Of a DNA stretch of 64,000 nucleotides, positions 9,848 through 61,762 are shown one piece after another. The stretch's first letter is position 1. The number at the start of each line of letters is the position of its first letter. Under the pieces are notes generated by a model, which was not told the origin of the DNA, did no database searches, and saw nothing but the letters and a program-made list of their open reading frames with translations. The translations under genes were made by a program, and so were the position numbers. This DNA is from Candidatus Doudnabacteria bacterium RIFCSPHIGHO2_02_FULL_42_25 (GTDB taxonomy: Bacteria > Patescibacteriota > Doudnabacteria > UBA920 > O2-02-FULL-48-8), in contig MFEQ01000003.1 in assembly GCA_001777665.1 (NCBI GenBank), forward strand, positions 11,258-75,257, read 5' to 3'.

Positions 9848-10552
9848 ATGATGGATATTAGAGAGTTCGCGAAACGGCACGGGATTTCAGTCATCGTTCG
9901 TCGTCACTTCGGGTACCGCAAGCCGGTCACAGACGCTCAGCTCACCCCACCGGTTCGCGCAGCACTGACCTACTCGCGCAATCTCGACGATCGAAAGCTT
10001 GGTCTGTTGTCCTCTGAAGTTGTGAAGGCGATGGATCAGGGTCGTCTGCTCGTCGCCATGGGGATCACTCCGCGTCTCGTCATCGTCGGTGACAACCAGC
10101 GCAATTGGGATGGCGGTCGTTCCACAGCGGAAGCGATCACCGATCTCACCGGCCTCACGGTCGACGTCTGGACCTCGCCTGCCGTCACCTACCCCCACTA
10201 CGCGAACTACGAGCAGAGCCTCGTCGAGTTCGGTGGGCCTGACAAGGGTGACTTTTCGCCCCACCGGTACCTCGCAGGCAAGACAGCCGGATCATTCTGG
10301 TCCGAGCCACCGCACGTCTTCGCCGATCGGGTCTCCCAGTCGGTACTCGCCGATTACGGTGTCGAACCCGTGCTCTTCGATCTCAACTTCGAGCAGGTGA
10401 CACTGTGCTACTACAAGCACGTCAAGAAGTTGATGCTCGAGCAGATCCCGACCGAGGGCGCTTGGATCCCCACCATGGGTGGCGGGATCGTGTACTCCAG
10501 CGATCGCCAGATCGCGATGGAGTTCCGACCCGACCTCACCATCAACGAATAG
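9848..10552 (+). CDS. hypothetical protein encoded by a high-GC gene-sized insert
   Basis: SD aaggaggg upstream. GC-rich codon usage is unlike the host. A GC-rich hairpin follows at 10575-10608. Confidence 0.5.
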   Translation: MMDIREFAKRHGISVIVRRHFGYRKPVTDAQLTPPVRAALTYSRNLDDRKLGLLSSEVVKAMDQGRLLVAMGITPRLVIVGDNQRNWDGGRSTAEAITDLTGLTVDVWTSPAVTYPHYANYEQSLVEFGGPDKGDFSPHRYLAGKTAGSFWSEPPHVFADRVSQSVLADYGVEPVLFDLNFEQVTLCYYKHVKKLMLEQIPTEGAWIPTMGGGIVYSSDRQIAMEFRPDLTINE

Positions 10553-19403: not shown

Positions 19404-19690
19404 GCCGCGGTAGCTCAGCGGTAGAGCGCAGCCCTAAATATCTTTGGGGCCAGAATCAGTAATGGTTCTTGAGAAAAATTGGGTGAATTCGGGGGAACCC
19501 CAGTCATGCTGGACAATCCCGAGCCAAGCCAGAAAGGGCAATGGTTTTCTGGAAGGTGTAGAGACTAGCAAGTGAGTCCCAACAATAATCTTGCAAACAG
19601 CGCCCAACTCCTTTAGTAAGGATGATGATATAGTCCACATAGCTTCGGAAGAGGCTGGCGTCGGGTGTTCGACTCACCCCCGCGGCACCA
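19404..19690 (+). tRNA. tRNA-Phe(GAA) interrupted by a group I intron after U33 (exons 19404-19435 and 19648-19690)
   Basis: Exons assemble to GCCGCGGTAGCTCAGCGGTAGAGCGCAGCCCU|GAAGAGGCUGGCGTCGGGTGTTCGACTCACCCCCGCGGCACCA. P1 (GCCCU/GGGGC) and P10 (GAAGA/UCUUU) pairings fix the splice sites. Confidence 0.75.
19436..19647 (+). ncRNA. group I (IC3-like) self-splicing intron in the tRNA-Phe anticodon loop
   Basis: Conserved blocks match the Azoarcus tRNA-Ile intron: GAAGGTGTAGAGACTAG, CGAGCCAAGC, GCAAAC. The 5' exon ends in U and the intron ends in G. Confidence 0.8.
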
Positions 19691-19763: not shown

Positions 19764-20432
19764 ATGGCTAGAAACGATAAACATTTAGCACTGCTATTAA
19801 GAAAATCTGGGAAAAGTTATGGTTTTATAAGTCGAGAGTTGCAAATTCCCAAAAGCACTTTATCAGAATGGTTTAGTGGTCTTAAGTGGTCAGGTATTGT
19901 AAAAAATAAACTTATCACAAAGGCCAACTTGCTAGCACAAAAGCGGATGCGTTTAATGGCGAAAGCTAATCAAAAACGCTGGCTAGATTGGAGAGCAGGA
20001 TATCGGTTACAAGCTATAGAAGAATTTGAGCTATTGAAGAATAACCCTTTATTTATCTCGGGTGTAATGCTTTATTGGGCAGAGGGAGATAATGGTAAAA
20101 AAAGTAGTAATGTTCGACTAGCCAATATTGATCCACGAATGATCCGAATTTTTATCAAATTCGCTTTAAAGATTTGCAAAGTTTCAAAAGCAAATATTAG
20201 AATCGGTTTGATTTTATATCCTGATTTAAAGGATACAGTATGCAAAAGTTTTTGGAGTAAATATTTAAAAATACCTATCGTTCAGTTTCATAAAACTCAA
20301 GTGATTAAAGGGAATCATCCTACAAAAAGACTCGAATACGGCATTTGTATGGTCAGAATTGGTGGAGCAGGACTAAAGGAAAAAATAAAAGTTTGGATAG
20401 ATCTATGTTCAAAAGAAATTATGCGGGTATAG
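19764..20432 (+). CDS. free-standing LAGLIDADG-like homing endonuclease-like protein with N-terminal HTH
   Basis: FISGVMLYWAEGDNGKK...VRLANIDPRMIRIFIKF resembles the second LAGLIDADG block of I-DmoI (FIKGLYVAEGDKT...LRIWNKNKALLEIV). 3' end overlaps tRNA-Gly by 10 nt. Confidence 0.45.
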   Translation: MARNDKHLALLLRKSGKSYGFISRELQIPKSTLSEWFSGLKWSGIVKNKLITKANLLAQKRMRLMAKANQKRWLDWRAGYRLQAIEEFELLKNNPLFISGVMLYWAEGDNGKKSSNVRLANIDPRMIRIFIKFALKICKVSKANIRIGLILYPDLKDTVCKSFWSKYLKIPIVQFHKTQVIKGNHPTKRLEYGICMVRIGGAGLKEKIKVWIDLCSKEIMRV

Positions 20433-47047: not shown

Positions 47048-47122
47048 GCGCGTGTAGCTCAGCGGTAGAGCGATTGTCTTATACACAATTGGCCCCAGGT
47101 TCGAATCCTGGCACGCGCACCA
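47048..47122 (+). tRNA. tRNA-Ile(TAT)
   Basis: GCGCGTG/CACGCGC acceptor, discriminator A, CCA. Anticodon loop CTTATAC (UAU). T-arm CCAGGTTCGAATCCTGG. Confidence 0.8.
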
Positions 47123-47797: not shown

Positions 47798-49318
47798 TTA
47801 TTCGACTTTCGGCCGGTATTGAACTGCTTCGGCAAGGTGAGTGACTGTAATCGATTGAGCATCTTCTAAGTCAGCAATGGTTCGAGCGAGTTTCAAAACA
47901 CGATGGTATGACCGAGCAGAAAGATACATTTTTACTACAACAGCCTTCATGAATGCTTGTTCGGCTTCTCCTAGCTGGCAAAACTCTTTAATCTCTTTTA
48001 TCGTCATCTCCGAATTAGTTTTAAGACCTGGAAGATTTGAAAACCTCTTTGTTTGAATGTCCCGTGCTCGCTGAACACGTGATTGAACTTCCTCGGATGA
48101 TTCTCCACCAGCATCTGACGCTAATTTGTCATATTCAATCCGTCCTACTTCCACATGGAGATCAATTCGATCCATCATCGGACCCGAAATTTTCTTATGA
48201 TACTTCGCGATTTGTGATGGTGAACAAATACAAGGCTTAGTCGGATCAGAAAAATATCCGCAAGGACAAGGATTCTGTGCTGCGACCAAAGTAAACTGTG
48301 CAGGAAATTCTACGGTGGCAGCAGCCCTAGCCACAGTCACGACCCCGTCTTCCAAAGGCTGACGTAAATTTTCCAAAACTGATCGATTAAATTCTGGAAA
48401 CTCATCCATAAACAACACACCCCGGTGAGCCAGCGATATCTCTCCAGGTTTCGGATTAGAACCTCCTCCAACCAAAGCCACTGAAGAAGAGCTGTGATGA
48501 GGACTCCGAAAAGGTCTCATCGTGATCATAGTTTTGTTTAAATTGAGCAACCCAGCTACACTATAGATTTTTGTAATTTCTAAAACCTCATCGACTGTCG
48601 GTTTGGGTAGAATCGAGGGCAGCGCCTTGGCCAACAATGTCTTACCAGTCCCCGGAGGACCAGAAAGCAGAACATTGTGTCCACCCGAAGCGGCAATCTC
48701 CAAAGCGCGTTTAGCAGATTCCTGGCCTTTGATCAATTTCAGGTCAAAAATCTCTTTCGGGGTACTTAGAATCTCTTCCCAATCAATTGCTTGGATGGGT
48801 TTTATCTTTATCAAATTCTGTAAGTACCCGATTACTTCGTATAAATTTTTTATAGGAATGATCGTGATTCCAGAAACCAGGCTCGCCTCTCTGCTATTTT
48901 CTTTTGGTACAAAAACTTTTTTAAATCCTTGCTCTTTCGCTGACAGCAACATTGAAAGCACTCCTGAAACTGCTCTGACACTACCGTCCAGAGCCAACTC
49001 ACCAAGAAATATTTTATCTTTTGGTTCAAAAAATATTTGACCAGAATTCAGTAAAATTGAAAGTGCAATGGGTAAATCATAATGCGTCCCATTTTTGGGT
49101 AGATCGGCTGGTGCTAGGTTAATGGCAACATGAGACCTGGGGAAAATTGCATTGGAATTTTTAATCGCAGACTTTACGCGTTCTTTCGCTTCTTGGACTG
49201 CGGTATCTGGTAACCCGACAATTATCGTTTTCGGTAACCCTCCCGAAATATCAACCTCAACCTCTATCGGAGCTGCGTCTAATCCTACTAAAGCAGTAGC
49301 ATAAACTTTCGCTGGCAT
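47798..49318 (-). CDS. comM: YifB/ComM family Mg-chelatase-like AAA+ ATPase
   Basis: ChlI-like N-terminal domain, Walker A SGPPGTGKT, and a C-terminal Mg_chelatase_C region. Confidence 0.85.
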   Translation of the reverse strand: MPAKVYATALVGLDAAPIEVEVDISGGLPKTIIVGLPDTAVQEAKERVKSAIKNSNAIFPRSHVAINLAPADLPKNGTHYDLPIALSILLNSGQIFFEPKDKIFLGELALDGSVRAVSGVLSMLLSAKEQGFKKVFVPKENSREASLVSGITIIPIKNLYEVIGYLQNLIKIKPIQAIDWEEILSTPKEIFDLKLIKGQESAKRALEIAASGGHNVLLSGPPGTGKTLLAKALPSILPKPTVDEVLEITKIYSVAGLLNLNKTMITMRPFRSPHHSSSSVALVGGGSNPKPGEISLAHRGVLFMDEFPEFNRSVLENLRQPLEDGVVTVARAAATVEFPAQFTLVAAQNPCPCGYFSDPTKPCICSPSQIAKYHKKISGPMMDRIDLHVEVGRIEYDKLASDAGGESSEEVQSRVQRARDIQTKRFSNLPGLKTNSEMTIKEIKEFCQLGEAEQAFMKAVVVKMYLSARSYHRVLKLARTIADLEDAQSITVTHLAEAVQYRPKVE

Positions 49319-50408: not shown

Positions 50409-50556
50409 AGTATTCCGGAGGATTTCGAAGGAATCAGTAGACTCGGGGCGGCTTCCTCACCCACCAACTCCTTCGTTTTTGTCATCCGTATAAGTAATGG
50501 TATACGATCGTTCACCTATTGTCAAGATAGGGAATTCTTTAGAAAAATTCAAAGGA

Positions 50557-50586
50557 TTGATTAGTTATTCACAGTCGAGCTATAAT
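50557..50586 (+). promoter_or_regulatory. promoter TTGATT-18-TATAAT upstream of galU
   Basis: -10 ends 9 nt before ggag and ATG 50596. Confidence 0.5.
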
Positions 50587-50595
50587 ATTGGAGTT

Positions 50596-51471
50596 ATGAT
50601 AAACGCTAAAAAAGTACGTAAGGCGGTTATTCCTGCCGCTGGGTTTGGAACTAGATTTCTTCCAGCCACTAAGGCCCAACCCAAAGAAATGTTACCGATT
50701 GTTGATAAACCGGTTATTCAATATGTAGTAGAGCAAGCGGTAGCAGCTGGAATTGAACAAATTGTGATCGTCACAGGTTGGCATAAACGAGCAATCGAGG
50801 ATCACTTCGATCGTCATTTTGAATTGGAAGCGAGATTAGAAAAAGACGGGAAAATTGAACAATTGCAATCAATAAAAAAGATTTCCGATTTAGCTGATTT
50901 TGTTTATGTTAGGCAAAAAGAAGCGTTGGGGAATGGCCATGCAGTACTCATGGCAAAAGATATAATTGGTAACGAACCTTTCGTTGTCATGTGGGGTGAT
51001 GAATTTTTTGAGGCAGATCCACCATCTTTGAAGCAATTAATTTCAGTTTATGAACAAACTGGTTCGCCAGTCATAGCTGGAATAAAAGTTGATAAAGCTG
51101 ACGTATCACGTTATGGAATCGGAAAAGTTACGAATATAAAAGACAATTTATTCAAGCTGCATGAAATAGTCGAAAAACCGACCCCGGAAGAAGCCCCTTC
51201 TAACTTGGCAGTTCATGGCAATTATCTATTTACTCCGGATATTTTTGATATGCTCAAAGATTTAAAACCATCTAAGAGTGGAGAGATTTGGCAAGTTGAT
51301 GCAATTAATAAACTTGCAGCACAAAAAGATGTTCATGTTCTGGAGTTAAAAAATTCCCACTACTATGATTGCGGGAATAAATTAGGATACCTCAAAGCTG
51401 TCGTAGAGTTTGGACTCAAACACGATGATCTTCGGGATGAATTTGCCGAATACCTCAGAAATATTGTATAA
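50596..51471 (+). CDS. galU: UTP--glucose-1-phosphate uridylyltransferase
   Basis: AVIPAAGFGTRFLPATKAQPKEMLPIVDKPVIQY signature. ATG preceded by a ggag SD. Confidence 0.85.
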   Translation: MINAKKVRKAVIPAAGFGTRFLPATKAQPKEMLPIVDKPVIQYVVEQAVAAGIEQIVIVTGWHKRAIEDHFDRHFELEARLEKDGKIEQLQSIKKISDLADFVYVRQKEALGNGHAVLMAKDIIGNEPFVVMWGDEFFEADPPSLKQLISVYEQTGSPVIAGIKVDKADVSRYGIGKVTNIKDNLFKLHEIVEKPTPEEAPSNLAVHGNYLFTPDIFDMLKDLKPSKSGEIWQVDAINKLAAQKDVHVLELKNSHYYDCGNKLGYLKAVVEFGLKHDDLRDEFAEYLRNIV

Positions 51472-51515
51472 TACAGGTAGTAAAAATTGATTTTTTCTGA
51501 CACAAACATTAAAAC

Positions 51516-52814
51516 ATGGATCGCAAATATATCCTCATAGGCGGAATTGGAGTCCTGCTATTAATTCTAATAATAGTTGCAGTTTTTGCGTTCTCAGGCG
51601 ATTCAAAAAATAATCAACCAACGAACGAAAATATCGAACTGATTTGGTGGAAACCATTTGAGGATTCCCAGAATGTTCAGGAATTAATTAACAATTACCA
51701 GCAATTACATGGAAACGTTCAAATAAAGTATGTCAAGAAAGATTCAGCGGAATATGAGAATGAGCTCCTAAAAGCAATTGCCACCGGGAATGCTCCAGAC
51801 ATTTTTTCGATACACAACGATTGGTTGCCAGCTTATGAAAGTATAATTGCACCAGCACCAGAATCCCTGATTAGTCCTAAGGCATACAAAGATAATTTTG
51901 CTGATGTAGCCTATAATGATTTTGTGAAGGGCAATCGAATTTACGGCGTACCATTATCGATTGATGCCTTGGCTCTGTTTTATAACAAAGACATTTTGGG
52001 TTCGGCAGGATTACTTCCTCCGACAACGTGGCCAGAATTGGTAAATATGGTGCCAAAGCTGACCCAAGTTTCGAAAACTGGAGTTTTTGCGCAATCGGGT
52101 GTAGCGCTGGGAACTTCGGAGAATGTTAACCGCGGTGTGGATATTTTGACTTTGATGATGCTCCAAAACGGCACGAAATTTTATTCCGATGATTTCACAT
52201 CTGCAGAATTTGATCAATCACAGGAAGATTTTAATCCAGGCGTCTATGCTCTAACTCTCTACACACAGTTTGCCAATCCATCGAAGCAATCGTATAGTTG
52301 GAATGTCCGAAATGATCAAAGTGTTGACGCCTTTACCCAAGGCAAACTGGCGATGATGCTGGCGTATCAATATTTGCAGCCATTGATCAAAGCTAAAGCT
52401 CCAAATTTGGGCTGGGATACTGCCCCTGTTCCTCAAATCAGTCCGGAGGTTTTGAAAGTTAACTTTGCGAATTATTGGGGAGAAGCTGTCACCAGCGCTT
52501 CCAAAAATCAAGCCGCGGCTTGGGATTTTCTGAATTTTATCACTTCCAAGGAGGAATTGGAAAAGTATTACGCTAAACATAAAGTACCAGCATCAAGAAA
52601 AGATATATTGCCGCAGCAACAAGGGGATGCTGATATAGGAGTATTTGCCGAAGCCATCTTCACAGCCAAAAGTGTTTACAAAAAGGACGCCCGTATTTAC
52701 GAAGGTGTATTTAAAACAATGATTGATAGTGTGGTACTGAATGGGGTCCCGATCGATGATGCTCTACGAAATGCCGCGGAACAAATCAATCTTAATTTAA
52801 GAAAAAATGAATAG
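51516..52814 (+). CDS. membrane-anchored ABC-transporter solute-binding protein (SBP family 1), orphan
   Basis: N-terminal TM anchor and an SBP_bac_1-like fold. No permease or ATPase genes adjacent. Confidence 0.7.
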   Translation: MDRKYILIGGIGVLLLILIIVAVFAFSGDSKNNQPTNENIELIWWKPFEDSQNVQELINNYQQLHGNVQIKYVKKDSAEYENELLKAIATGNAPDIFSIHNDWLPAYESIIAPAPESLISPKAYKDNFADVAYNDFVKGNRIYGVPLSIDALALFYNKDILGSAGLLPPTTWPELVNMVPKLTQVSKTGVFAQSGVALGTSENVNRGVDILTLMMLQNGTKFYSDDFTSAEFDQSQEDFNPGVYALTLYTQFANPSKQSYSWNVRNDQSVDAFTQGKLAMMLAYQYLQPLIKAKAPNLGWDTAPVPQISPEVLKVNFANYWGEAVTSASKNQAAAWDFLNFITSKEELEKYYAKHKVPASRKDILPQQQGDADIGVFAEAIFTAKSVYKKDARIYEGVFKTMIDSVVLNGVPIDDALRNAAEQINLNLRKNE

Positions 52815-53238
52815 AACTAAATTAAATATTATTTTTGGTATGGTTATTCTGGGGTTAGCCATTGCACCCATAGCTTCAGCCGCATTGGTCACATGTGGTG
52901 GTAATAATCCAGAGGTATCTTCAAAAGCATGCGAATTGGGAGATTTAATTCAGACTTTACGATTAATAGTAAATACTTTGTTGTCGTGGGCTTGGTTAGT
53001 TTGTATCTTGTTTATTGTCTATGCGGGTATTCGAATGGTGACTTCGCGTGGTAATGATGAAGAGGTGAGTAATGCCAAAACAATTCTAACTAATGCCATC
53101 CTGGGATTTCTTGTCATTTTGCTGTCATTTGTTTTGGTAAATTTCTTAGTCGGATTACTTACGGGTTCGGGTGGATTTAATCCTGGAGCAATTTTTGATG
53201 CTTTTCAACTAGTTCCATCAAGTAGCTCAAAACCATGA
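52807..53238 (+). CDS. TrbC/VirB2-like (T4SS-type) pilin paralog 1
   Basis: Signal peptide, Cys pair (VTCGG...ACELGD), TM1, loop YAGIRMVTSRGNDEEVSNAK, TM2. Confidence 0.6.
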   Translation: MNRTKLNIIFGMVILGLAIAPIASAALVTCGGNNPEVSSKACELGDLIQTLRLIVNTLLSWAWLVCILFIVYAGIRMVTSRGNDEEVSNAKTILTNAILGFLVILLSFVLVNFLVGLLTGSGGFNPGAIFDAFQLVPSSSSKP

Positions 53239-53822
53239 TTAACTATTTAATTTTAGCTCAAACTGCCAACACAATTTGCAACAACACAGTCGATAAACTT
53301 TGCAATCCCGTTAAAGTTGCAACTTTGCCACTGTTTATTTCCAAGATTTTGATTGCCGCCGGTGCCGTTGTCGGTGTACTCACGATAATAATGGTGGTGT
53401 ATAGCGGTACGAGAATGATTCTTTCTCAAGGAAATGAAGAGGACGTTACAAAAGCAAAAAGTTCTTTGCAATGGAGTATTTCAGGTTTTGTTCTAACACT
53501 GTTTGCTTACATTATTGTTTATGCAGTAAGTGGATTTTTCCAAACCAGACCTTTTGGAGCCAATCCAGGGCAAATAGAAAATCCACTTCAGAGTCCAGAC
53601 ATATTCTCTCTGATTCAAACCGTGCTAACTAGTTTTCTGGGAGTCGTCGGATTATTGGCGATACTGTTTATAATCATTAATGGGTTTCGATACATCACCT
53701 CCAGAGGGAATGAGGAGCAATCAGGTCAAGCTAAACAAGGTTTAACCTGGTCAGTATTAGGATTAATTGTTAGTCTTTTGGCTTACGTGATTGTGGCGGC
53801 AACCGCTAACTTTTTTAAATAA
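53235..53822 (+). CDS. TrbC/VirB2-like pilin paralog 2 (two fused pilin modules)
   Basis: Loops YSGTRMILSQGNEEDVTKAK and INGFRYITSRGNEEQSGQAK, each between hydrophobic helices. Confidence 0.6.
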   Translation: MINYLILAQTANTICNNTVDKLCNPVKVATLPLFISKILIAAGAVVGVLTIIMVVYSGTRMILSQGNEEDVTKAKSSLQWSISGFVLTLFAYIIVYAVSGFFQTRPFGANPGQIENPLQSPDIFSLIQTVLTSFLGVVGLLAILFIIINGFRYITSRGNEEQSGQAKQGLTWSVLGLIVSLLAYVIVAATANFFK

Positions 53823-53828
53823 AATTAT

Positions 53829-54212
53829 ATGAAACAATTATTTATAAGTTTAGTTTTGGTGACTATTCTGATGGTTCCTTTATTTAGTGTAAATGCACAG
53901 GTATGCGATACGACTAAGCCAGTTACTAGTGCCGTTTGCAACCCAGCTCCTGGTTGGTTTATTTCATACCAGGATAACAGCGTAAGAGGTGTGATAACTA
54001 TGATTATCCAGTTTCTGTTACTGATTGTCGGACTTGTAGCTATCGCCTTTATTATTTATGGCGGTTTCCAGTTTATTACTTCGAGAGGGGACGAAGAGCA
54101 GGCCACCGCTGGTAAAAGAACCTTGACTAATGCTATAATAGGTCTAGTAATAGTTATCCTGTCCTATATAATAGTAGCCGTAATAGTAAATGCCCTGAAA
54201 GGGAGTGCTTAA
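53829..54212 (+). CDS. TrbC/VirB2-like pilin paralog 3
   Basis: Signal peptide, Cys pair, and loop YGGFQFITSRGDEEQATAGK. Confidence 0.6.
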   Translation: MKQLFISLVLVTILMVPLFSVNAQVCDTTKPVTSAVCNPAPGWFISYQDNSVRGVITMIIQFLLLIVGLVAIAFIIYGGFQFITSRGDEEQATAGKRTLTNAIIGLVIVILSYIIVAVIVNALKGSA

Positions 54213-54258
54213 TTAACAAAACTATTAAAAGGTCGAAGAATATTAAGAAAGGACTTAT

Positions 54259-54630
54259 ATGAAAAAAATATCAACATCTAAAATTGCTTCAATTGTGATG
54301 GTTGCCTTCGTTTTGACTATGGCTATCGCCCCGGTCGGATCAGCTGCGTGGGTAAATCCACAATGTACTGGTACTGGACTGCCATGTCAAACATCTATTA
54401 CGGATTTCATCATGAACATCATCAACATTGCTTTAACTGTTGCTGGTTTGATCGCAGTGTTGTTCCTGATCATTGGTGGTTTCCGCTACATCACATCTGC
54501 GGGCAATGAAGAAACAGCGGAGAACGCGAAGAAGATTATCATCAATGCCATTATCGGTATTGTGATAATCATTCTCTCATTCGTGATTGTCAGAGTGATC
54601 TCTGAAGCTTTGGTAAGAGGTAATACTTAA
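54259..54630 (+). CDS. TrbC/VirB2-like pilin paralog 4
   Basis: Signal peptide, Cys pair (QCTGTGLPC), and loop IGGFRYITSAGNEETAENAKK. Confidence 0.6.
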   Translation: MKKISTSKIASIVMVAFVLTMAIAPVGSAAWVNPQCTGTGLPCQTSITDFIMNIINIALTVAGLIAVLFLIIGGFRYITSAGNEETAENAKKIIINAIIGIVIIILSFVIVRVISEALVRGNT

Positions 54631-54641
54631 ACCAACATTTC

Positions 54642-54986
54642 ATGAGTAGAATTAAATACATCTCGTTAATATTATTGTCTTTACCATCTGTTGCATTTGC
54701 GCAGATTATTCCGGATCGAATTCCAGGACTGCCTGGAGATCAGTATAGTACAGTTTCCAATGCATTAACTGAAATCATCCAAACAGTTTTAGTTGTGGTC
54801 GGCCTGATAGCTGTCGCATTTTTGATATACGGTGGGTTCCGTTATATCACATCTGCTGGAAACGAAGAGACTGCGGAATCAGCAAAAAAGACAATCCAAA
54901 ACGCTATTATAGGGCTAGTAGTTATTATTTTGTCTTATATAATAGTAGTGGTTATATCGAACGCTCTACTTACAAGCGATATATAA
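54642..54986 (+). CDS. TrbC/VirB2-like pilin paralog 5
   Basis: Signal peptide and loop YGGFRYITSAGNEETAESAKK. Confidence 0.6.
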   Translation: MSRIKYISLILLSLPSVAFAQIIPDRIPGLPGDQYSTVSNALTEIIQTVLVVVGLIAVAFLIYGGFRYITSAGNEETAESAKKTIQNAIIGLVVIILSYIIVVVISNALLTSDI

Positions 54987-55005
54987 TTCCGAAATAAAAA
55001 AAGAG

Positions 55006-55054
55006 AGCCGGGACCCCTGTGGAGCCCCGGCTTTTTTGCGTTGACTTCAACGCG
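55006..55054. terminator. bidirectional terminator at the pilin-array / high-GC island junction
   Basis: agccgggacccctgtggagccccggctttttt, plus a second small hairpin gcGTTGActTCAACgc. Confidence 0.7.
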
Positions 55055-56045
55055 AGGATGCTTCGCAGTCTTTCTTTACAGTTGACTGGTCGAACACTCG
55101 CTGTTCCTTGAAGTGGTCGTCAGTTATGACGATGGTCATGTGGCGACCACCGACGACCTCGTTCTCAGCCTGTGAGTACGCCCTCACTGGCCAAGTGTAG
55201 TAATGCCCATCGCTGATCCGAACGGCAGTCAGGTCTGCGTATTCGCCAGCGATTAGCGGTACTTTTTGATCGACGATACCGTCGATCTGGTTCGCCGCAC
55301 CGATGTAGCAACCCCGCAGGTAGATCTCGACACCTTTGGTCCTGCCCTGAGTCTTCAAGCCGCCGATCGTACCACGGTTCCTGACAGTTCTGGAGACCTC
55401 GGCGTAGAACGGGTCGACGTAGCCCACGGTTCCTGGCTGCATATAACCCACAGCTCCGTAGCCAACCGCAGCGGGGTAACCGATGCTGCCGTAGGCAAAT
55501 CGATTCTGTTTGGCCAGGAAACTCTCGCATCCGTAATCGCCGTAAAAGCAGGGATTATAACCCGGCAAACTCCGGCGACGTCGGTACATCTCGTCTGGAT
55601 CCATCTGCGGAGGCTGGATGGCAGCAGATCTTGCTTGAACTGCTGGACCTGACACGACAGGATTCGCGTTCTGAGTCGCTGTGACTTCTGGGACTGTTGC
55701 TTCCTGTAGGCTCCCCGGTTTGACTTTGCGAATGTAGGTAAGAGGTGGCTTCACCTCCACGTAGCACCCGATTCGACCCGCGACTTGCTTCAGCACCTCG
55801 TATACCGGGAAGTCATCGTAAGGCACGAGCGGCGGAACGATGCGCGATGCTTCACAGCCTGCGGTGTGAGCGACAATACCGATACGGCTGTTTGCGCCGT
55901 CACCCGAAAGCTCGGTCACGATCTCCCCGAACGTTTTCGATTTCGTGAGGTCGATGGTGACGCGCTCCTGCTGTGCCGCTGGAATCTGCGCGTAAACCGG
56001 CATTGCGAACGCCAGTGCGCTGAGAACGAAAAAGAAACACTTCAT
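55047..56045 (-). CDS. high-GC island gene 1: secreted hypothetical protein with GY-rich region
   Basis: SD ggagggg, ATG at 56045, signal peptide MKCFFFVLSALAFAMPVYAQ. Own promoter at 56113-56141. Confidence 0.55.
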   Translation of the reverse strand: MKCFFFVLSALAFAMPVYAQIPAAQQERVTIDLTKSKTFGEIVTELSGDGANSRIGIVAHTAGCEASRIVPPLVPYDDFPVYEVLKQVAGRIGCYVEVKPPLTYIRKVKPGSLQEATVPEVTATQNANPVVSGPAVQARSAAIQPPQMDPDEMYRRRRSLPGYNPCFYGDYGCESFLAKQNRFAYGSIGYPAAVGYGAVGYMQPGTVGYVDPFYAEVSRTVRNRGTIGGLKTQGRTKGVEIYLRGCYIGAANQIDGIVDQKVPLIAGEYADLTAVRISDGHYYTWPVRAYSQAENEVVGGRHMTIVITDDHFKEQRVFDQSTVKKDCEASSR

Positions 56046-56112
56046 TGTTTGCCCCTCCATTGAGGCTGTTAACGCATACTTCGTTGAGAGCTGGGCGGGA
56101 AATTTAATAAAA

Positions 56113-56141
56113 CAGTATAGCAAAAATAAGCAATTTTGTCA
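56113..56141 (-). promoter_or_regulatory. promoter TTGACA-17-TATACT in an AT-rich spacer inside the high-GC island
   Basis: Read on the - strand. Preceded by a terminator hairpin at 56196-56236 for the upstream operon. Confidence 0.45.
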
Positions 56142-56266
56142 ATAATAGCACGAAAATATTAGTTTGTAAGTAAAAAAAGACCGGCCTCTCTAAAGCGAGA
56201 AGCCGGGGCGACGCTACTAATGAGCGTCGAAAATACTCTTATTTGTTCATCCTCCTTGGATGCTAC

Positions 56267-57139
56267 CTAGTTGATTTTGACTAGCAGTTCGCCCGGGTGG
56301 GCTTTGCAGACGTCGGTAGAAAACGTCTGTCCTAACTGCGGGTTGTCAGGTGTGATCACGAACTTGCGCTTGCCGGAACCGATGAAGTAACCGCTTCCTT
56401 CGGCGCCGTCTAGCACGACTAACCCGTTGAACCACCCCTGAAAGTGTCCGCCCTCGTAGTACTTCGGTCCGACGCAAAGTACAGCGTCAGAGAACAGAGG
56501 GAAACCGGCTTCGCAGGAGTCGCCGTCCTCGTCGCAGAACCGGCCGATCGCTTGATTGAGTTTGCCGGTTTCTGGAGTCGGATTATCGAGTCCGCGTTCG
56601 TGCATCAGGACTGTTCGGTCCCGAGCATTGGGATTACGTATCCACGTAATTCCATCCGGACCAGATTCGTGGGTCGGGTAGTACTTCGGTCGAACCTTCC
56701 CAAAAACCTGGATCCTTGTCGGTACTCGGATCTCCCGAAGGTAAGCCCAGTCTGTATCGTCGGCTTCGACCTCGGTAGACAGATACGACTCGTCACGGTC
56801 GGCGGCGTGAGCGTCCCATGCTTTTTCGACACGGACTAGATCCCGTGATCGATTGGCAGATGGCCACAAAATCGCCAGTAGTTCGTTCGAGTTAGTGACC
56901 TTCCGCTGTCTTTCGGCACGTCTCACGATCTTTTCGCTCTCGTCGTTGAGCTGAAGAGCGTTGACATGGTGTTCGCGGCTGAGCTTGGTCTGCATCTCCT
57001 TCTGCGCTTCCCAGTACCGCGGGCGGTTACGTTGCTCGTAGTACTGATAAAGCGCGAAGCCGATGGCAATCACTGCGAGGACCTTCATGATCGCGCGCAA
57101 GTTGACAGAACTGGTTTTCTTTTTGTCTTCTCTCGCCAT
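56267..57139 (-). CDS. high-GC island gene 2: N-terminally membrane-anchored hypothetical protein
   Basis: SD gaggag, one TM helix (LAVIAIGFALYQYY), and a Cys-containing extracytoplasmic domain. Confidence 0.55.
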   Translation of the reverse strand: MAREDKKKTSSVNLRAIMKVLAVIAIGFALYQYYEQRNRPRYWEAQKEMQTKLSREHHVNALQLNDESEKIVRRAERQRKVTNSNELLAILWPSANRSRDLVRVEKAWDAHAADRDESYLSTEVEADDTDWAYLREIRVPTRIQVFGKVRPKYYPTHESGPDGITWIRNPNARDRTVLMHERGLDNPTPETGKLNQAIGRFCDEDGDSCEAGFPLFSDAVLCVGPKYYEGGHFQGWFNGLVVLDGAEGSGYFIGSGKRKFVITPDNPQLGQTFSTDVCKAHPGELLVKIN

Positions 57140-57149
57140 GTCAGTCTCC

Positions 57150-58181
57150 TCAGTGATGATGACTCGTGGACTTCATGGACCCCGCTAGAATGACAAGGCC
57201 TACCAGAAGAAGCAAAATCGGATGCTCTTCGAAGTAGTTTGTCCCTCGCGAGATCCAGCCTTCGGAGCTTTGATCTTCTTCAGGTTTGAGATCAGCCTTG
57301 ATCTCCTGGATCGCTTCCAGTTGCTGTTCGTCTTCAGCCGTCCAGGAATGACCGACTGGATCAAGTTTGTACTCGCGCTGTTTATTCAGCAGCTGGAGTT
57401 CTTGCTTGTCCACCCGTTCACGCCAGTACCGGTCGACGCCTTCCTTGGTTTCGATACTCTTCGCAGTCTGACGCTTTTCTGTCTGACTGTAGTGATACTT
57501 CGCCATGAGGTAGTCGTATGTTCCCGGTGCGATGGTCCGTACGGTCATTGGTCCCAGAAGGAACAGCGCGTATACGGTAACTGCGTATCCGAGCCGTCGC
57601 CGCCATTTCTTGATGTCGACGAAGTCCTCTGTAGCGACGAAGAAGAGGATCATCGTTGTGATCATCACCGTTGCGGAGAACCAGTCGTTCTCCCACACCG
57701 GGAAGATCCCACACACCATCAGGAAGACTTCCGACCACATGAAGATGGTCGAAATCAGATGGAACGCGATTCCACTGATGTACTTCTCGTGCCACAGGAC
57801 TTCCTGACTGCCTGCGTGCACTTCAGCGTGTACTTCCGGAGGCTGACCCACGATGTTGCGGAGCCAGTTCGGAATTACTTCGTTTACTCGACGCCATATC
57901 CCAATAAAGAGATCGACGCCGAGGAGAGGAACCGCGATCTTGCGCGAGACGTAGAGGTAAATCAGGTACCCGGTGAAAATTCCAATGCGGGCCGGGGTAT
58001 TACTCCCCAGGACCCGAGTGGCTGCTGCGAACACCACGATGTTCGCGATCATCAGGATCACGGCGATTTGCACGTCGCGAACCTGATCGCCGAACCAAAC
58101 CCTGAACTCGGTCATTCGGAGCCGGCCAATTCGCGCCCGCTCCTGAAGGTTCTCCCACAGTGCTTCGAACATCTCGAACAT
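57150..58181 (-). CDS. high-GC island gene 3: polytopic membrane protein (about 6 TM), His-rich C-terminus
   Basis: SD aagagga and multiple hydrophobic helices. Confidence 0.55.
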   Translation of the reverse strand: MFEMFEALWENLQERARIGRLRMTEFRVWFGDQVRDVQIAVILMIANIVVFAAATRVLGSNTPARIGIFTGYLIYLYVSRKIAVPLLGVDLFIGIWRRVNEVIPNWLRNIVGQPPEVHAEVHAGSQEVLWHEKYISGIAFHLISTIFMWSEVFLMVCGIFPVWENDWFSATVMITTMILFFVATEDFVDIKKWRRRLGYAVTVYALFLLGPMTVRTIAPGTYDYLMAKYHYSQTEKRQTAKSIETKEGVDRYWRERVDKQELQLLNKQREYKLDPVGHSWTAEDEQQLEAIQEIKADLKPEEDQSSEGWISRGTNYFEEHPILLLLVGLVILAGSMKSTSHHH

Positions 58182-58199
58182 TGCAGTAATCCTCTTAGG

Positions 58200-59084
58200 T
58201 TAACGGGAACGAATCCCGAAGTTGAAGTGAAAGCGCCGACGCGGCCGCTTGAGTTTCGTGACCTTGGTCACCCGATCCGTCTTCGCCGCTTCATGTACCC
58301 GGACTATCTCGACCTGGCTGTCAATGCGGTGTCTGCAGAGATCGTATTGACGCTTCTCCGCTCGCTCTTCACGCCGCAGTGCCCGCCATTCGCGGAATCG
58401 AGCCCAGCGCTGCTCCCACCAATTACTCAGTGAAGTCATGAGGTTGCGGTTGGCTCTGTGCTGTTTTGCAGCCAATTTTTGTTCGAGACCTTCCCGAACT
58501 CCACGCAGTCGCAGCGTGTCCTGTCGAACGCTCTGGGTAGCCTCGGTCAGTGCTTTCTGACCGTCTTTCTGGAGCCACTTCAGGAACGTCTGCCACGTCG
58601 TCTCCACTTTTGACTGATCGAGGTTCATGACATGCGCCCAGCGATCCCATTCGTCATCTGTCATGCGAGCATCCTTCTCGAGAGTATTCGCGATTTTCTC
58701 GGGAGTATCTTGCATGACAGTAATCCGATACCAGTCAGACTGCTCCGATGTGAGCTTAGCGAGGCGTTTCGACAACCTGGTGCGGTCGTTGTCTTCGAGG
58801 AGGTTCCTTGCGTCGTTGAAGCGTCGCTCGTCCTCGCTCTTCACGCCCCAGATCCGCAGCCCGATGTAGTCCGCTGCGGTTGCACTGATCTTTTCGCCGG
58901 TTTTCTCGGCGAAAGATCCGAGGAGCTTGTTTAGAATCGAAACGCCGCTCGCGGCCAGGAGCTTGACTATTGACGCGACGCCGATCGCGGAGGTGGCCGT
59001 ACCGAGGTGCTTCAGGAACTCGAATCCGTCGGCGCCTCCATGGTCCTTCGGTTTTTCTTGCGGTGTGTCTGCCATCTGTCTCAT
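58200..59084 (-). CDS. high-GC island gene 4: hypothetical protein (coiled-coil rich, Arg-rich C-terminus)
   Basis: ATGA start/stop overlap with gene 5. Confidence 0.55.
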   Translation of the reverse strand: MRQMADTPQEKPKDHGGADGFEFLKHLGTATSAIGVASIVKLLAASGVSILNKLLGSFAEKTGEKISATAADYIGLRIWGVKSEDERRFNDARNLLEDNDRTRLSKRLAKLTSEQSDWYRITVMQDTPEKIANTLEKDARMTDDEWDRWAHVMNLDQSKVETTWQTFLKWLQKDGQKALTEATQSVRQDTLRLRGVREGLEQKLAAKQHRANRNLMTSLSNWWEQRWARFREWRALRREERAEKRQYDLCRHRIDSQVEIVRVHEAAKTDRVTKVTKLKRPRRRFHFNFGIRSR

Positions 59085-59836
59085 GCCTCTTTGAGTAAAG
59101 TCTTCTTCACCAGCTCGTTGCTCTCCTCGTGGAGGAAAGAGCAGTACGCATCAGCTGTCAGGAGCTGGATATGAAGAGTGAGTTTGCCGTTGTCGAGAGT
59201 TTCGAACCCTTTTTCGCCGTCATACACCTCGTCATATCCACGCACCTTGAATTTCTGACCGGCGTTGATAGACACCGTCCCTTGCTCTGGCTTGCCGGTC
59301 TCGTCCTTACAAATGAACGTGACCGGATTCCAGTTGTCCAGGGACAGAGGATGGGGGATGACTTCGAATCGCTTCTTGTCGTCCTTCTTCGTCGTCGGTT
59401 CCGCCACGGGAGTGAACTTGCCCGTCGTGGGCAGAGGTTTGGTATCCTCCCAGCTGTAGACGCCGTGCACGGCAGTGATGTGCGTGAACTTCTCGTGTGC
59501 TGTCGTCAACGGGAATTTTCCCGCTGCGATGCCGCGCTCGTCGGTTTCGAGCACCCAGACACTCTTGCTCCCATCAGCTGCAGTCTTCTCGATCTGCTTC
59601 TGACGTTTCTGGGTATCGGCACCGAGCCAGAACCAGAGTTGTTCGCCTTTGATGGCTTTGCCGTCCTTCGTGATTCTGACAGAGAGTTCGACTGCTTCGC
59701 GCTTACCTCCGCACTCGAATTCGTACTTGAAGACGGGTGCCTTCGGTCGCTTGTCCTGTTGCTTCCCGCGATCTTGCTGACCGCGGTTTCTGTTCTGATC
59801 GCGCTGTCCTCCAGTGCGACCTTGGTCTCTTGCCAT
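59081..59836 (-). CDS. high-GC island gene 5: hypothetical protein with low-complexity N-terminus
   Basis: SD ggaaggag. First gene of the five-gene minus-strand operon. Confidence 0.55.
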   Translation of the reverse strand: MARDQGRTGGQRDQNRNRGQQDRGKQQDKRPKAPVFKYEFECGGKREAVELSVRITKDGKAIKGEQLWFWLGADTQKRQKQIEKTAADGSKSVWVLETDERGIAAGKFPLTTAHEKFTHITAVHGVYSWEDTKPLPTTGKFTPVAEPTTKKDDKKRFEVIPHPLSLDNWNPVTFICKDETGKPEQGTVSINAGQKFKVRGYDEVYDGEKGFETLDNGKLTLHIQLLTADAYCSFLHEESNELVKKTLLKEA

Positions 59837-60029
59837 GTCTGCTCCTTCCGCATTTAGCGGGAATTTGATGTTGATTTTTCTGTGAGACTACCTGATACCA
59901 ACCACACTTTCGTGTAGCCGATCTCAAACAATCTCGTGTACAAACCTAGGTTGTCAAAGGACTCTCATGTCCAAATGCCATATATGTGGCGGGCAGACAT
60001 GATTAACGTCAAATGATAGCAGATTTTGG

Positions 60030-60091
60030 CCATTTTGTCAATAGTTAGCGTTATCTGAAAGGTTGACAAAATGGGCTGTTTTTGCTACTAT
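60030..60091. promoter_or_regulatory. symmetric divergent promoters: CCATTTTGTCAA ... TTGACAAAATGG with -10 TACTAT (+ strand) and TATCAT (- strand)
   Basis: Both -35 hexamers lie in the arms of a 12-bp perfect inverted repeat (60030-60041 and 60063-60074). Confidence 0.5.
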
Positions 60092-60154
60092 TTGGGGTCG
60101 CAAGTTGGGAATGAGCCTGACTGCGCGTTCGTCCACAAATCACAGGGGGAAATA

Positions 60155-61585
60155 ATGCTGCCAACTCGAATTAAGGTTCTCTGGTTGACGGCGGCGGAAA
60201 TTATAGCGATGGCCGCAGGAAAACCCTCTGGGGTTTTCTGGGGTGTAGTCACTCACACTTCGCCACACCTCGACGAACTATGGGGCGTATTCCAACTTCG
60301 GCACTGGGGAGAACATCGATTCCCCGGAATCTGTAGTCCGGATTTCGTGCTCGTGCTCCTCATGGATCCGGATAGCATCACTTGGCAAGAACTCTCTGCG
60401 CTCGGTCTCATTCCCGTCGGTATCGGGGGAAAAGAAAATCCCTTCGATGAGCATGGTCTCGTAGACGAAGATGGCGAACGAGTCGAGACTTGCGCTGCGA
60501 TGTTAATCGAGCGTGGTCACCGGCCTCGGTATAAGAAAGACCCGGGTGGTTACAAGGCCTGGTTTCAGGATGCAATGAAACGCGGACTGGATCTTCTCAA
60601 TCGCGTGAAGTTCTTCCGGAGACTCTATCCGAACGCCCAGGTTTACATCCATGCCATCGACACAATCACCAAGTACGTCCGACAGGGTGATCTCAATCGG
60701 ACCGAAGACAAGCACGCGGCCGGCAATGACGTGAAGGACCGATGGTCCGTATACGAGGACTTGGCGCGTAAGAAGCTTCGTCTACCGAAGGACATGACTC
60801 CGCTGGCGGAATTTATTCCAAAGGACGAGCGAGAAGCCTTAAACGTCCTTGGAACACGCGTCGTCAATGACACATTCAGGGACCTTTGGCTTTACTTGGC
60901 TCGGGGAATATCGTTCGCAGATTGCATTCGCCGAGTTAAGGACAACCCCCCGGAGAAGCGCAAGTTCTACATCGAAGGTATCAAGCCTCCGATGTGGCTG
61001 AAGATTATTCGGGAGCATCATCCGCTTGCGAATTTGCGTGAAGTTCCTCCCGTGCTTCGACATCTCGGTGCGGACTGGACATATAAGCGGAACGCCTCGG
61101 GCCACATCCACATCGGCTTCCCCGACTACGTCATTAAGATCGTCGAGGAAGACGAGATTGACTCGGAAATGACGACGACAGAAGAGGAGTACGTTAGTCG
61201 GACACGCATCAAGGTCAAGTTCTTCATCCAGAACGTTCTCCGGGCCTTGCGACGTCTGGAGAAAGTTAAGTTCGGGAAGAATTGGACTGAAGAAGAAATG
61301 GGACGACCTCAGCTCGAAGGTTCGCTGTTTTCGACACCGAACCTAGAGGCTGGATTCATCCTGTGGGGTTCGACTTTCGCCGGGCAAGGAACCATAGCTT
61401 GTCCGTTTGAAGATGATGATCTGATCCAGCTCCTCATCGACAACATCGAGGGCGAGATCGTCGAGTCGCGCGAACTCCATCACGCCAAGAAACTCGCAAG
61501 GGAGGAGGACGAAGTAAGGCAGCAGATCGCGATAACCGCAGTGACTTCACTGGCAGATATGCCAGTGGACGTAACTGTCGGCTAA
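60155..61585 (+). CDS. high-GC island gene 6: cytoplasmic hypothetical protein (476 aa)
   Basis: SD aggggga plus ATG 60155. The longer ORF-track frame begins inside the promoter. Confidence 0.55.
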   Translation: MLPTRIKVLWLTAAEIIAMAAGKPSGVFWGVVTHTSPHLDELWGVFQLRHWGEHRFPGICSPDFVLVLLMDPDSITWQELSALGLIPVGIGGKENPFDEHGLVDEDGERVETCAAMLIERGHRPRYKKDPGGYKAWFQDAMKRGLDLLNRVKFFRRLYPNAQVYIHAIDTITKYVRQGDLNRTEDKHAAGNDVKDRWSVYEDLARKKLRLPKDMTPLAEFIPKDEREALNVLGTRVVNDTFRDLWLYLARGISFADCIRRVKDNPPEKRKFYIEGIKPPMWLKIIREHHPLANLREVPPVLRHLGADWTYKRNASGHIHIGFPDYVIKIVEEDEIDSEMTTTEEEYVSRTRIKVKFFIQNVLRALRRLEKVKFGKNWTEEEMGRPQLEGSLFSTPNLEAGFILWGSTFAGQGTIACPFEDDDLIQLLIDNIEGEIVESRELHHAKKLAREEDEVRQQIAITAVTSLADMPVDVTVG

Positions 61586-61675: not shown

Positions 61676-61762
61676 GCCGGGGTGGCGAAACTGGCAGACG
61701 CATCAGCTTTAGGAGCTGACGGAAGAAATTCCATGCAGGTTCAATTCCTGTCCCCGGCACCA
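61676..61762 (+). tRNA. tRNA-Leu(TAG), type II
   Basis: GCCGGGG/CCCCGGC acceptor, discriminator A, CCA. Anticodon loop TTTAGGA. Long variable arm. T-arm CAGGTTCAATTCCTG. Confidence 0.85.

Follow-up and report, generated by a model that had tools for sequence, protein, structure and literature searches.

The Patescibacteria system for type IV secretion (T4SS) is defined by the genes for VirB6, PrgI, TrsD and VirB4 (PMC12102498), and according to a 2025 review no pilin set other than that of this phylum is known from a monoderm T4SS. When 3,035 Patescibacteria genomes were searched with the profiles PF18895 and PF04956, 441 arrays of 2–11 VirB2-like genes were found, with a mean identity of 25% and a maximum of 54% (Quinonero-Coronel et al., 2025; PMC12102498). 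Of 1948 assemblies in the same survey, only 1135 had their pilin genes close to virB4, and about 40% of the pilin-bearing assemblies were without this proximity. In Southlakia epibionticum six PF18895 pilins, SEML1_0014–0019, adjoin VirB6 and are individually essential for epibiotic growth as judged by transposon sequencing (Tn-seq), a phenotype that they share with the T4SS genes (Wang et al., 2023; PMC10633639). Here we describe a pilin array from the metagenome-assembled genome of an ultra-small groundwater bacterium, Candidatus Doudnabacteria bacterium RIFCSPHIGHO2_02_FULL_42_25 (assembly GCA_001777665.1), found in a 64,000-nt stretch of contig MFEQ01000003.1 (positions 11,258–75,257, forward strand), which we call the window and whose numbering is used throughout. 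The array consists of five co-directional open reading frames (ORFs) at 52807–54986, named P1 to P5, with six helix-loop-helix modules, and a gene for a solute-binding protein (SBP) heads the operon to which it belongs.

We consider it probable that this six-gene operon encodes the membrane-inserted and surface-exposed part of a Patescibacteria-type T4SS, a system of the monoderm MPF-FATA lineage. Pilin arrays that lie apart from the machinery genes are already published and are ordinary for the phylum, as are arrays in general. The locus resembles the described Patescibacteria arrays in its PF18895 membership, its tandem and divergent paralogs, its Sec signal peptides, its chromosomal location and the lack of a relaxase nearby. 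It differs from them, and from the Southlakia array, in being detached from virB4 and virB6, in being headed by an SBP_bac_1 gene, in having a conserved two-module pilin and in the strict positional orthology of its members. We regard the SBP-headed, positionally conserved and detached operon, together with the fused-module pilins described below, as modest additions that we did not find in the literature on arrays.

Comparisons can also be made with two other groups. VirB2 of Agrobacterium and TrbC of RP4 are likewise small, have a cleaved signal peptide and form a hydrophobic two-helix hairpin with a short polar loop, whereas the proteins described here score below the cut-off of the canonical profile, come from a monoderm without an outer-membrane core complex and occur as multiple paralogs with fused modules. 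The Mbov_0395 proteins of Mollicutes integrative and conjugative elements and Bacillota plasmids (NF045849) are encoded by a single gene or a pair of genes on a mobile element and presumably serve conjugation. P2, P4 and P5 score above the cut-off for this family, but our locus has five paralogs, which are chromosomal and have neither a relaxase nor a coupling protein in their vicinity.

Family and layout of the pilin array

All five proteins exceed the curated gathering cut-off of Pfam family PF18895 (T4SS_pilin; 26.6 bits, whole-protein score) far beyond chance: P1 (143 aa, 52807–53238) scores 39.0 bits, P2 (195 aa, 53235–53822) 86.1 bits, P3 (127 aa, 53829–54212) 45.5 bits, P4 (123 aa, 54259–54630) 56.2 bits and P5 (114 aa, 54642–54986) 49.2 bits, all on the + strand. 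The precomputed annotation of the public contigs agrees with this assignment. Against NF045849 (Mbov_0395 family pilin-like conjugal transfer protein, NCBIfam, cut-off 40), P2 (67.2 bits), P4 (42.8 bits) and P5 (43.7 bits) lie above the cut-off, and P1 (30.1 bits) and P3 (34.8 bits) lie below it. An initial annotation of the window, made from the letters, had proposed five tandem pilin ORFs with six modules, and this is confirmed by the profile scores. The sequences support the placing of the five genes among the VirB2/TrbC-like T4SS_pilin paralogs of the type that is expanded in the candidate phyla radiation (CPR)/Patescibacteria. A VirB2 array has been defined as at least two pilin genes, in tandem or spaced by one gene, with low identity (PMC12102498); in our locus five genes are adjacent and the six modules are 23–47% identical in pairwise comparison.

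The hydropathy segments of P1–P5 fit an architecture of signal peptide, helix, short polar loop and helix. The loop between the two hydrophobic helices reads ..G[FIT][RQ][YMF][IV][TL]S[RAQ]G[ND][ED]E....[AG]K, and its G, S, G, E and K columns are invariant across the aligned modules, which bears out the conserved loop that had been noted earlier. Signal peptides with AxA-type cleavage sites are present in P1, P3, P4 and P5 only. The N-terminus of P2 is the atypically short and uncharged MINYLILAQTA, although full signal peptides occur in P2 orthologs that are more distant. A Cys pair, which the initial annotation gave to every gene, is found in P1, module a of P2, P3 and P4, and is absent from P5 and from module b of P2. 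P2 has two stretches matching PF18895, and in its AlphaFold2 model (pLDDT 77) the helices at residues 31–63/68–102 and 123–155/160–193 make up two hairpins, so that the claim of two modules in the second gene also stood. The pilin fold is a generic, plain helical hairpin, for which reason a fold comparison with the solved pilins VirB2, TraA and TrhA is uninformative. A search of PDB sequences with the module profile gave only a designed helical repeat (E 0.08), and tblastn of P5 against plasmids gave one weak match (E 0.3) that is useful for annotation and context only. A phage, holin or bacteriocin reading was rejected, as a PHROGs scan of the pilins and of the ORFs in the neighbouring high-GC block (below) and a blastn search of the operon against phage genomes were both empty.

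The first gene of the operon encodes the SBP, a membrane-anchored protein of 432 aa (51516–52814, + strand) that belongs to SBP_bac_1 (PF01547 118 bits, PF13416 109 bits). It overlaps P1 by 8 nt, P1 and P2 overlap by 4 nt, and the following gaps are 6, 46 and 11 nt; the 46-nt gap before P4, which contains the motif AAGAAAGGA, is the only sizeable intergenic gap. As all five pilin genes lie in one tight operon, they are probably co-expressed. A fusion of P1 and P2 into a single protein by frameshifting, considered in view of the linker-like tail of P1 (below), was rejected as unnecessary, as genes are commonly coupled by an ATGA overlap of this kind and more distant P2 orthologs have signal peptides of their own. 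The array ends, as had been proposed, in a strong terminator, a hairpin at 55006–55032 with a 12-pair stem of which 9 pairs are G-C. This terminator is flanked by an A-run before and a T-run after the stem, and can therefore act in both directions and serve both convergent genes, the pilin operon and the ORF at 55047–56123. On the upstream side, a promoter-like sequence, TTGCCG-18-TATAAT (51443–51472, + strand), matches the consensus at 10 of 12 positions and ends 44 nt before the SBP start. Promoter-like sites in this region are no more numerous than expected from shuffled sequence, and we suggest this site only tentatively as a candidate operon promoter. The gene upstream of the SBP gene, galU (UTP-glucose-1-phosphate uridylyltransferase, 50497–51471, + strand), scores 345 bits against the 326.8-bit cut-off of TIGR01099. 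The same locus has been assembled identically from several Rifle aquifer samples, for example in contig MFFA01000002.1 of GCA_001780055.1 (RIFCSPLOWO2_02_FULL).

Conservation of five differentiated paralogs

A scan with one genome per species gave 48 related loci, nearly all of them with arrays of 5–8 pilin genes. The order P1, P2 (with two modules), P3, P4, P5 is kept across the roughly ten closest species, and in these each of the five proteins scores clearly best against its positional counterpart (P1 with 105 against 58 bits, P2 with 180 against 70). P2 has full-length two-module orthologs with 40–63% identity. The mean identity of the helix-loop-helix core to orthologs is 82% for P4 (range 64–89%), 62% for P5, 60% for P3 and 42% for P1, and for P2 it is 41% in module a and 53% in module b. 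FtsH is 75–85% identical in the same genomes, and the P4 core is comparable. The exposed N-terminal segments are more variable than the cores, with 24–42% identity to orthologs, and the Cys pair is conserved in the P1 orthologs and not in those of P4.

This pattern bears on a proposal of the initial annotation, also found in PMC12102498, that such paralogs serve antigenic or adhesive variation, i.e., that they are interchangeable variants of one pilin with which the cell evades recognition or binds different hosts. The greater divergence of the N-terminal segments (24–42% as compared with 42–82% in the cores) is in line with such a role, as are the identity of only 23–47% among the paralogs, the long N-terminal extensions or PKD domains of some array members in relatives, and the analogy drawn in the literature with the VirB2 arrays of Bartonella and Anaplasma (PMC12102498). 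However, gene number, order and one-to-one orthology are kept in about ten species, and a comparison of the paralogs at the DNA level revealed no tracts of gene conversion or recent duplication, the best shared tracts being 62–75% identical over 52–68 nt. The locus moreover holds no silent cassettes, inverted repeats or recombinase, the genes form one operon whose members are probably expressed together, and the Southlakia pilins are individually essential, which is unexpected for redundant variants (PMC10633639). The Bartonella and Anaplasma arrays, as described in PMC12102498, share with ours the tandem amplification of divergent T4SS pilin genes, but our paralogs are of ancient origin, with orthology that follows position and without traces of recombination, and would meet a bacterial host as their partner and not an immune system. 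We consider variation of this kind unlikely.

The conservation instead fits a fixed set of differentiated subunits, in which the paralogs would be old and non-redundant. We suggest that P4, and perhaps P5 too, is the likely bulk (major) subunit, while P1–P3, with their variable N-terminal segments predicted to be disulfide-bonded, are likely to be minor or specialized subunits.

A broader view of the family revealed pilins with more modules. A search with the module profile returned 86,456 clusters at 50% identity, and its top matches were single proteins in which 2–17 T4SS_pilin modules follow one another in tandem (P0175, P0171, P0156); one such protein has 17 modules in 1775 aa. We refer to these as poly-pilins and did not find them described in the literature on Patescibacteria T4SS pilins. 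Among the related loci, those of Peregrinibacteria/Gracilibacteria (L044, L046, L047 and L048) contain one or two three-module pilins followed by a protein of 1436–1656 aa, which in L044 has an N-terminal pilin module and seven PKD domains, and next to it a protein of 717–835 aa with six PKD domains in L044, L047 and L048. The C-terminal tail of P1 (53160–53238), GGFNPGAIFDAFQLVP, resembles the linker between the modules of P2, FGANPGQIENPLQSPDIFSLIQ, and is conserved in the P1 orthologs. A three-module ancestor, similar to the pilins of Peregrinibacteria, may have given rise to both P1 and P2.

Links to the secretion machinery and the solute-binding protein

The array is linked to T4SS genes in relatives. 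In two loci from more distant Patescibacteria (L038 and L043) the gene string reads GalU, SBP_bac_1, seven to eight pilins, one or two TrbL/VirB6, PrgI, TrsD and VirB4, with VirB6 of L038 scoring 38.9 bits against a cut-off of 25.9, PrgI 33–34 against 27 and VirB4 about 110 bits against PF19044. As this string continues from the SBP and pilin genes directly into VirB6-PrgI-TrsD-VirB4, the window can be seen as holding the detached front half of a T4SS operon. In the simplest reading of these gene orders, the machinery half of an ancestral SBP-pilins-VirB6-PrgI-TrsD-VirB4 operon has been relocated elsewhere in Doudnabacteria. A similar order is seen on a megaplasmid of Pontibacillus, a cultured member of the Bacillota (NZ_CP062975.1, 351801–358115, L056), where genes for an Mbov_0395 pilin-like protein, proteins of 145, 779, 116 and 274 aa, a VirB4-like ATPase of CD1110 type and a peptidoglycan hydrolase follow one another; the order from the pilin-like gene to the CD1110-type VirB4 matches that of L038 and L043. 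This suggests that the conjugation systems of monoderms are not wholly without VirB2-like genes.

The SBP gene, which had been taken for an orphan, is part of the pilin unit and not a bystander. Besides overlapping P1, it has homologs (29–62% identity) directly upstream of the first pilin gene in about 32 of 47 related loci, distant ones included, and in most related loci, L038 and L043 among these, the immediate upstream neighbour of the SBP gene is galU. The protein has an N-terminal transmembrane helix and no lipobox Cys, and is only distantly similar to the carbohydrate-binding proteins GanS, MalE and UgpB. It could recognize host glycans or capture nutrients at the site of contact. Binding proteins functionally tied to a T4SS are known: PrgZ of pCF10 binds pheromone, and ChvE of Agrobacterium senses sugars for the induction of the vir genes. 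These resemble our case in that an extracytoplasmic binding protein is linked to a T4SS, but PrgZ belongs to the OppA family, ChvE has another periplasmic binding fold and both are regulatory, whereas the SBP described here is a MalE/UgpB-like SBP_bac_1 protein, anchored in the membrane and translationally coupled to the first pilin gene. We can only tentatively, and with more doubt than confidence, go one step further and propose that in Doudnabacteria and their relatives the SBP genuinely belongs to the conserved surface module of the T4SS, where it could be a receptor for host glycans or serve nutrient capture associated with the pilus, that the pilus is a fixed heteromer of five ancient paralogs including a covalent double subunit, and that the poly-pilins represent a new mode of construction.

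The initial annotation also proposed a role in DNA uptake, which the comM/yifB gene further upstream was said to fit. On this reading the pilins would form a DNA-capturing structure for competence that works together with ComM. The comM gene (47798–49318) is indeed only 3.5 kb away, ComM, GalU, SBP and the pilins are co-directional with gaps of 10–30 nt in many relatives, and some T4SSs import DNA, such as ComB of Helicobacter and Ced of Sulfolobales (PMC12102498). In the window, however, comM is on the opposite strand, and the arrays of L038 and L043, which are those that carry T4SS genes, have neither ComM nor FtsH as a neighbour. The neighbours recA, lspA, lexA and ftsH are equally conserved, which makes the proximity a matter of backbone synteny. 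Saccharibacteria need type IV pili and ComEC for competence, and Southlakia with comEC deleted is no longer competent but stays viable, whereas the pilins are essential (PMC12857230). The locus holds no ComEC, ComEA or DprA and shows no linkage to type IV pili. Taken together, the tie to ComM is weak, and we hold a function in DNA uptake to be highly improbable.

Several points weigh against our assignment of the operon to a T4SS. We searched about 84 kb, the window with 10 kb added at either end, using an HMM for VirB4 that was made from 60 Patescibacteria sequences (E<=10) and phmmer with VirB6, PrgI and TrsD queries (E<=1), and no VirB4, VirB6, PrgI, TrsD or VirD4 was detectable, which confirms and extends the absence noted earlier. 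In about 40 related loci of the Doudnabacteria type, too, the 10 kb around the array on either side held no machinery gene. A search for homologs of the L043 VirB4 gave more than 8000 nearly equidistant matches (57–61% identity), of which none could be assigned to this genome. The canonical TrbC/VirB2 profile PF04956 (threshold 27.9) is reached by none of the proteins, P3 (19.1 bits, E 0.0015) and P5 (18.5 bits, E 0.0023) being below the threshold and P1, P2 and P4 giving no match. P2 has no convincing signal peptide, where one had been claimed for every ORF and is upheld in the four others. Finally, the literature on Patescibacteria T4SSs shows no filament of these proteins in any Patescibacterium.

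The surroundings of the array agree with the absence of machinery. A chromosomal FtsK with a gamma domain is the one large translocase of P-loop type that the window encodes, no further pilin-like ORFs occur in it, and the 10-kb extensions of the contig in both directions hold only housekeeping genes and dnaA/dnaN. T4SS genes of Patescibacteria are often close to dnaA (PMC12102498). Here dnaA and dnaN (L054 5569–8218) lie 2–4 kb upstream of the window start, which places the array about 57 kb from the origin, and the ORFs beyond dnaN have no T4SS signatures. Table S1 of PMC12102498 contains a Doudnabacteria-class genome marked 'Yes' for VirB4.

One could take these absences to mean that the five genes encode small membrane proteins that work independently of any T4SS, as envelope-stabilizing, holin-like or bacteriocin-like proteins sharing only ancestry with VirB2. 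The lack of machinery in about 84 kb, and within 10 kb in about 40 related loci, speaks for this reading. The generic fold is compatible with this too, and a family of 86,456 clusters that includes polyproteins of 2–17 modules is hard to reconcile with a classical pilus subunit. On the other hand, the proteins match no holin, bacteriocin or phage family. Their counterparts adjoin VirB6-PrgI-TrsD-VirB4 in L038 and L043, T4SS genes also lie beside pilin genes in the Pontibacillus plasmid and in Southlakia, and the Southlakia pilins share the essentiality phenotype of the T4SS (PMC10633639). We find a T4SS-independent function quite unlikely, and favor the view that the operon encodes the surface part of a T4SS whose remaining genes are elsewhere in the genome.

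If the operon encodes the surface part of a T4SS, its products could work as follows. The pilins would be exported by Sec and their signal peptides cleaved, after which the membrane would hold the hairpins in store, their two ends facing outward and the conserved TS(R/A)GNEE..AK loop facing inward. A machine of VirB4, VirB6, PrgI and TrsD, encoded elsewhere, would then pull the subunits into a surface filament or an extension of the channel, with the variable, disulfide-bonded N-terminal segments of P1–P3 on the outside of the structure. This filament or channel would contact the host bacterium on which the epibiont depends.

Surroundings of the array and implications

Between the array terminator and a tRNA-Leu(UAG) gene (61676–61762) lies a block at 55047–61585 with a GC content of 0.52–0.57, as compared with about 0.39 in the array, which the initial annotation described as a foreign-looking high-GC island. 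Its ORFs match nothing in Pfam, NCBIfam or PHROGs, a homolog search with the first protein (55047–56123) returned only itself and one partial relative, and no convincing att-like direct repeats flank the block. In L015, L023 and L032 the array is followed by tRNA-Leu and FtsH with no insert. As 6–8 closer species have a raised-GC block of 3–7 kb at the same place, with two gene families in common (one of a secreted 358-aa protein, the other of a 290-aa protein), the block is a conserved or recurrent feature of the clade and was not acquired recently by this genome alone. A motif of about 28 nt, TTGACAAAAT..GC..TTTTTGCTAT, which includes a -35-like hexamer, is repeated, both directly and inverted, in the intergenic regions of the block (56117–56144, 60016–60043 and 60063–60094) and may be a promoter or operator specific to it.

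Elsewhere in the window, a group I intron (RF00028, 72 bits) is found at 19426–19657, 49 nt after tRNA-Val(UAC), and is followed by a 222-aa ORF (19764–20432) that extends into tRNA-Gly; possibly a tRNA gene bears an intron here, the ORF being homing-endonuclease-like. A tRNA-Ile gene with anticodon UAU (47048–47122) has the same position in related Doudnabacteria loci, and an isolated 234-aa ORF (9848–10552) without a Pfam match has a GC content of 0.60, the genome being at about 40%.

Much of the diversity of uncultured bacteria belongs to the Patescibacteria, and their T4SS, which includes the unusual pilin array, was the first for which an essential role in the growth of its bearer was shown. 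The locus described here leaves the overall picture of this system unchanged. Its ancient and positionally conserved paralogs favor a heteromeric or role-divided structure over antigenic variation, and P4, which is constrained like a housekeeping protein, is a natural candidate for the bulk subunit. In one large lineage the pilin/T4SS operon consistently begins with a gene for a sugar-type binding protein, which suggests a partner in host recognition or uptake. On the tentative reading given above, the poly-pilins, in which as many as 17 VirB2-like modules are fused, would point to a mode of filament or channel construction that is unknown in classical T4SSs.

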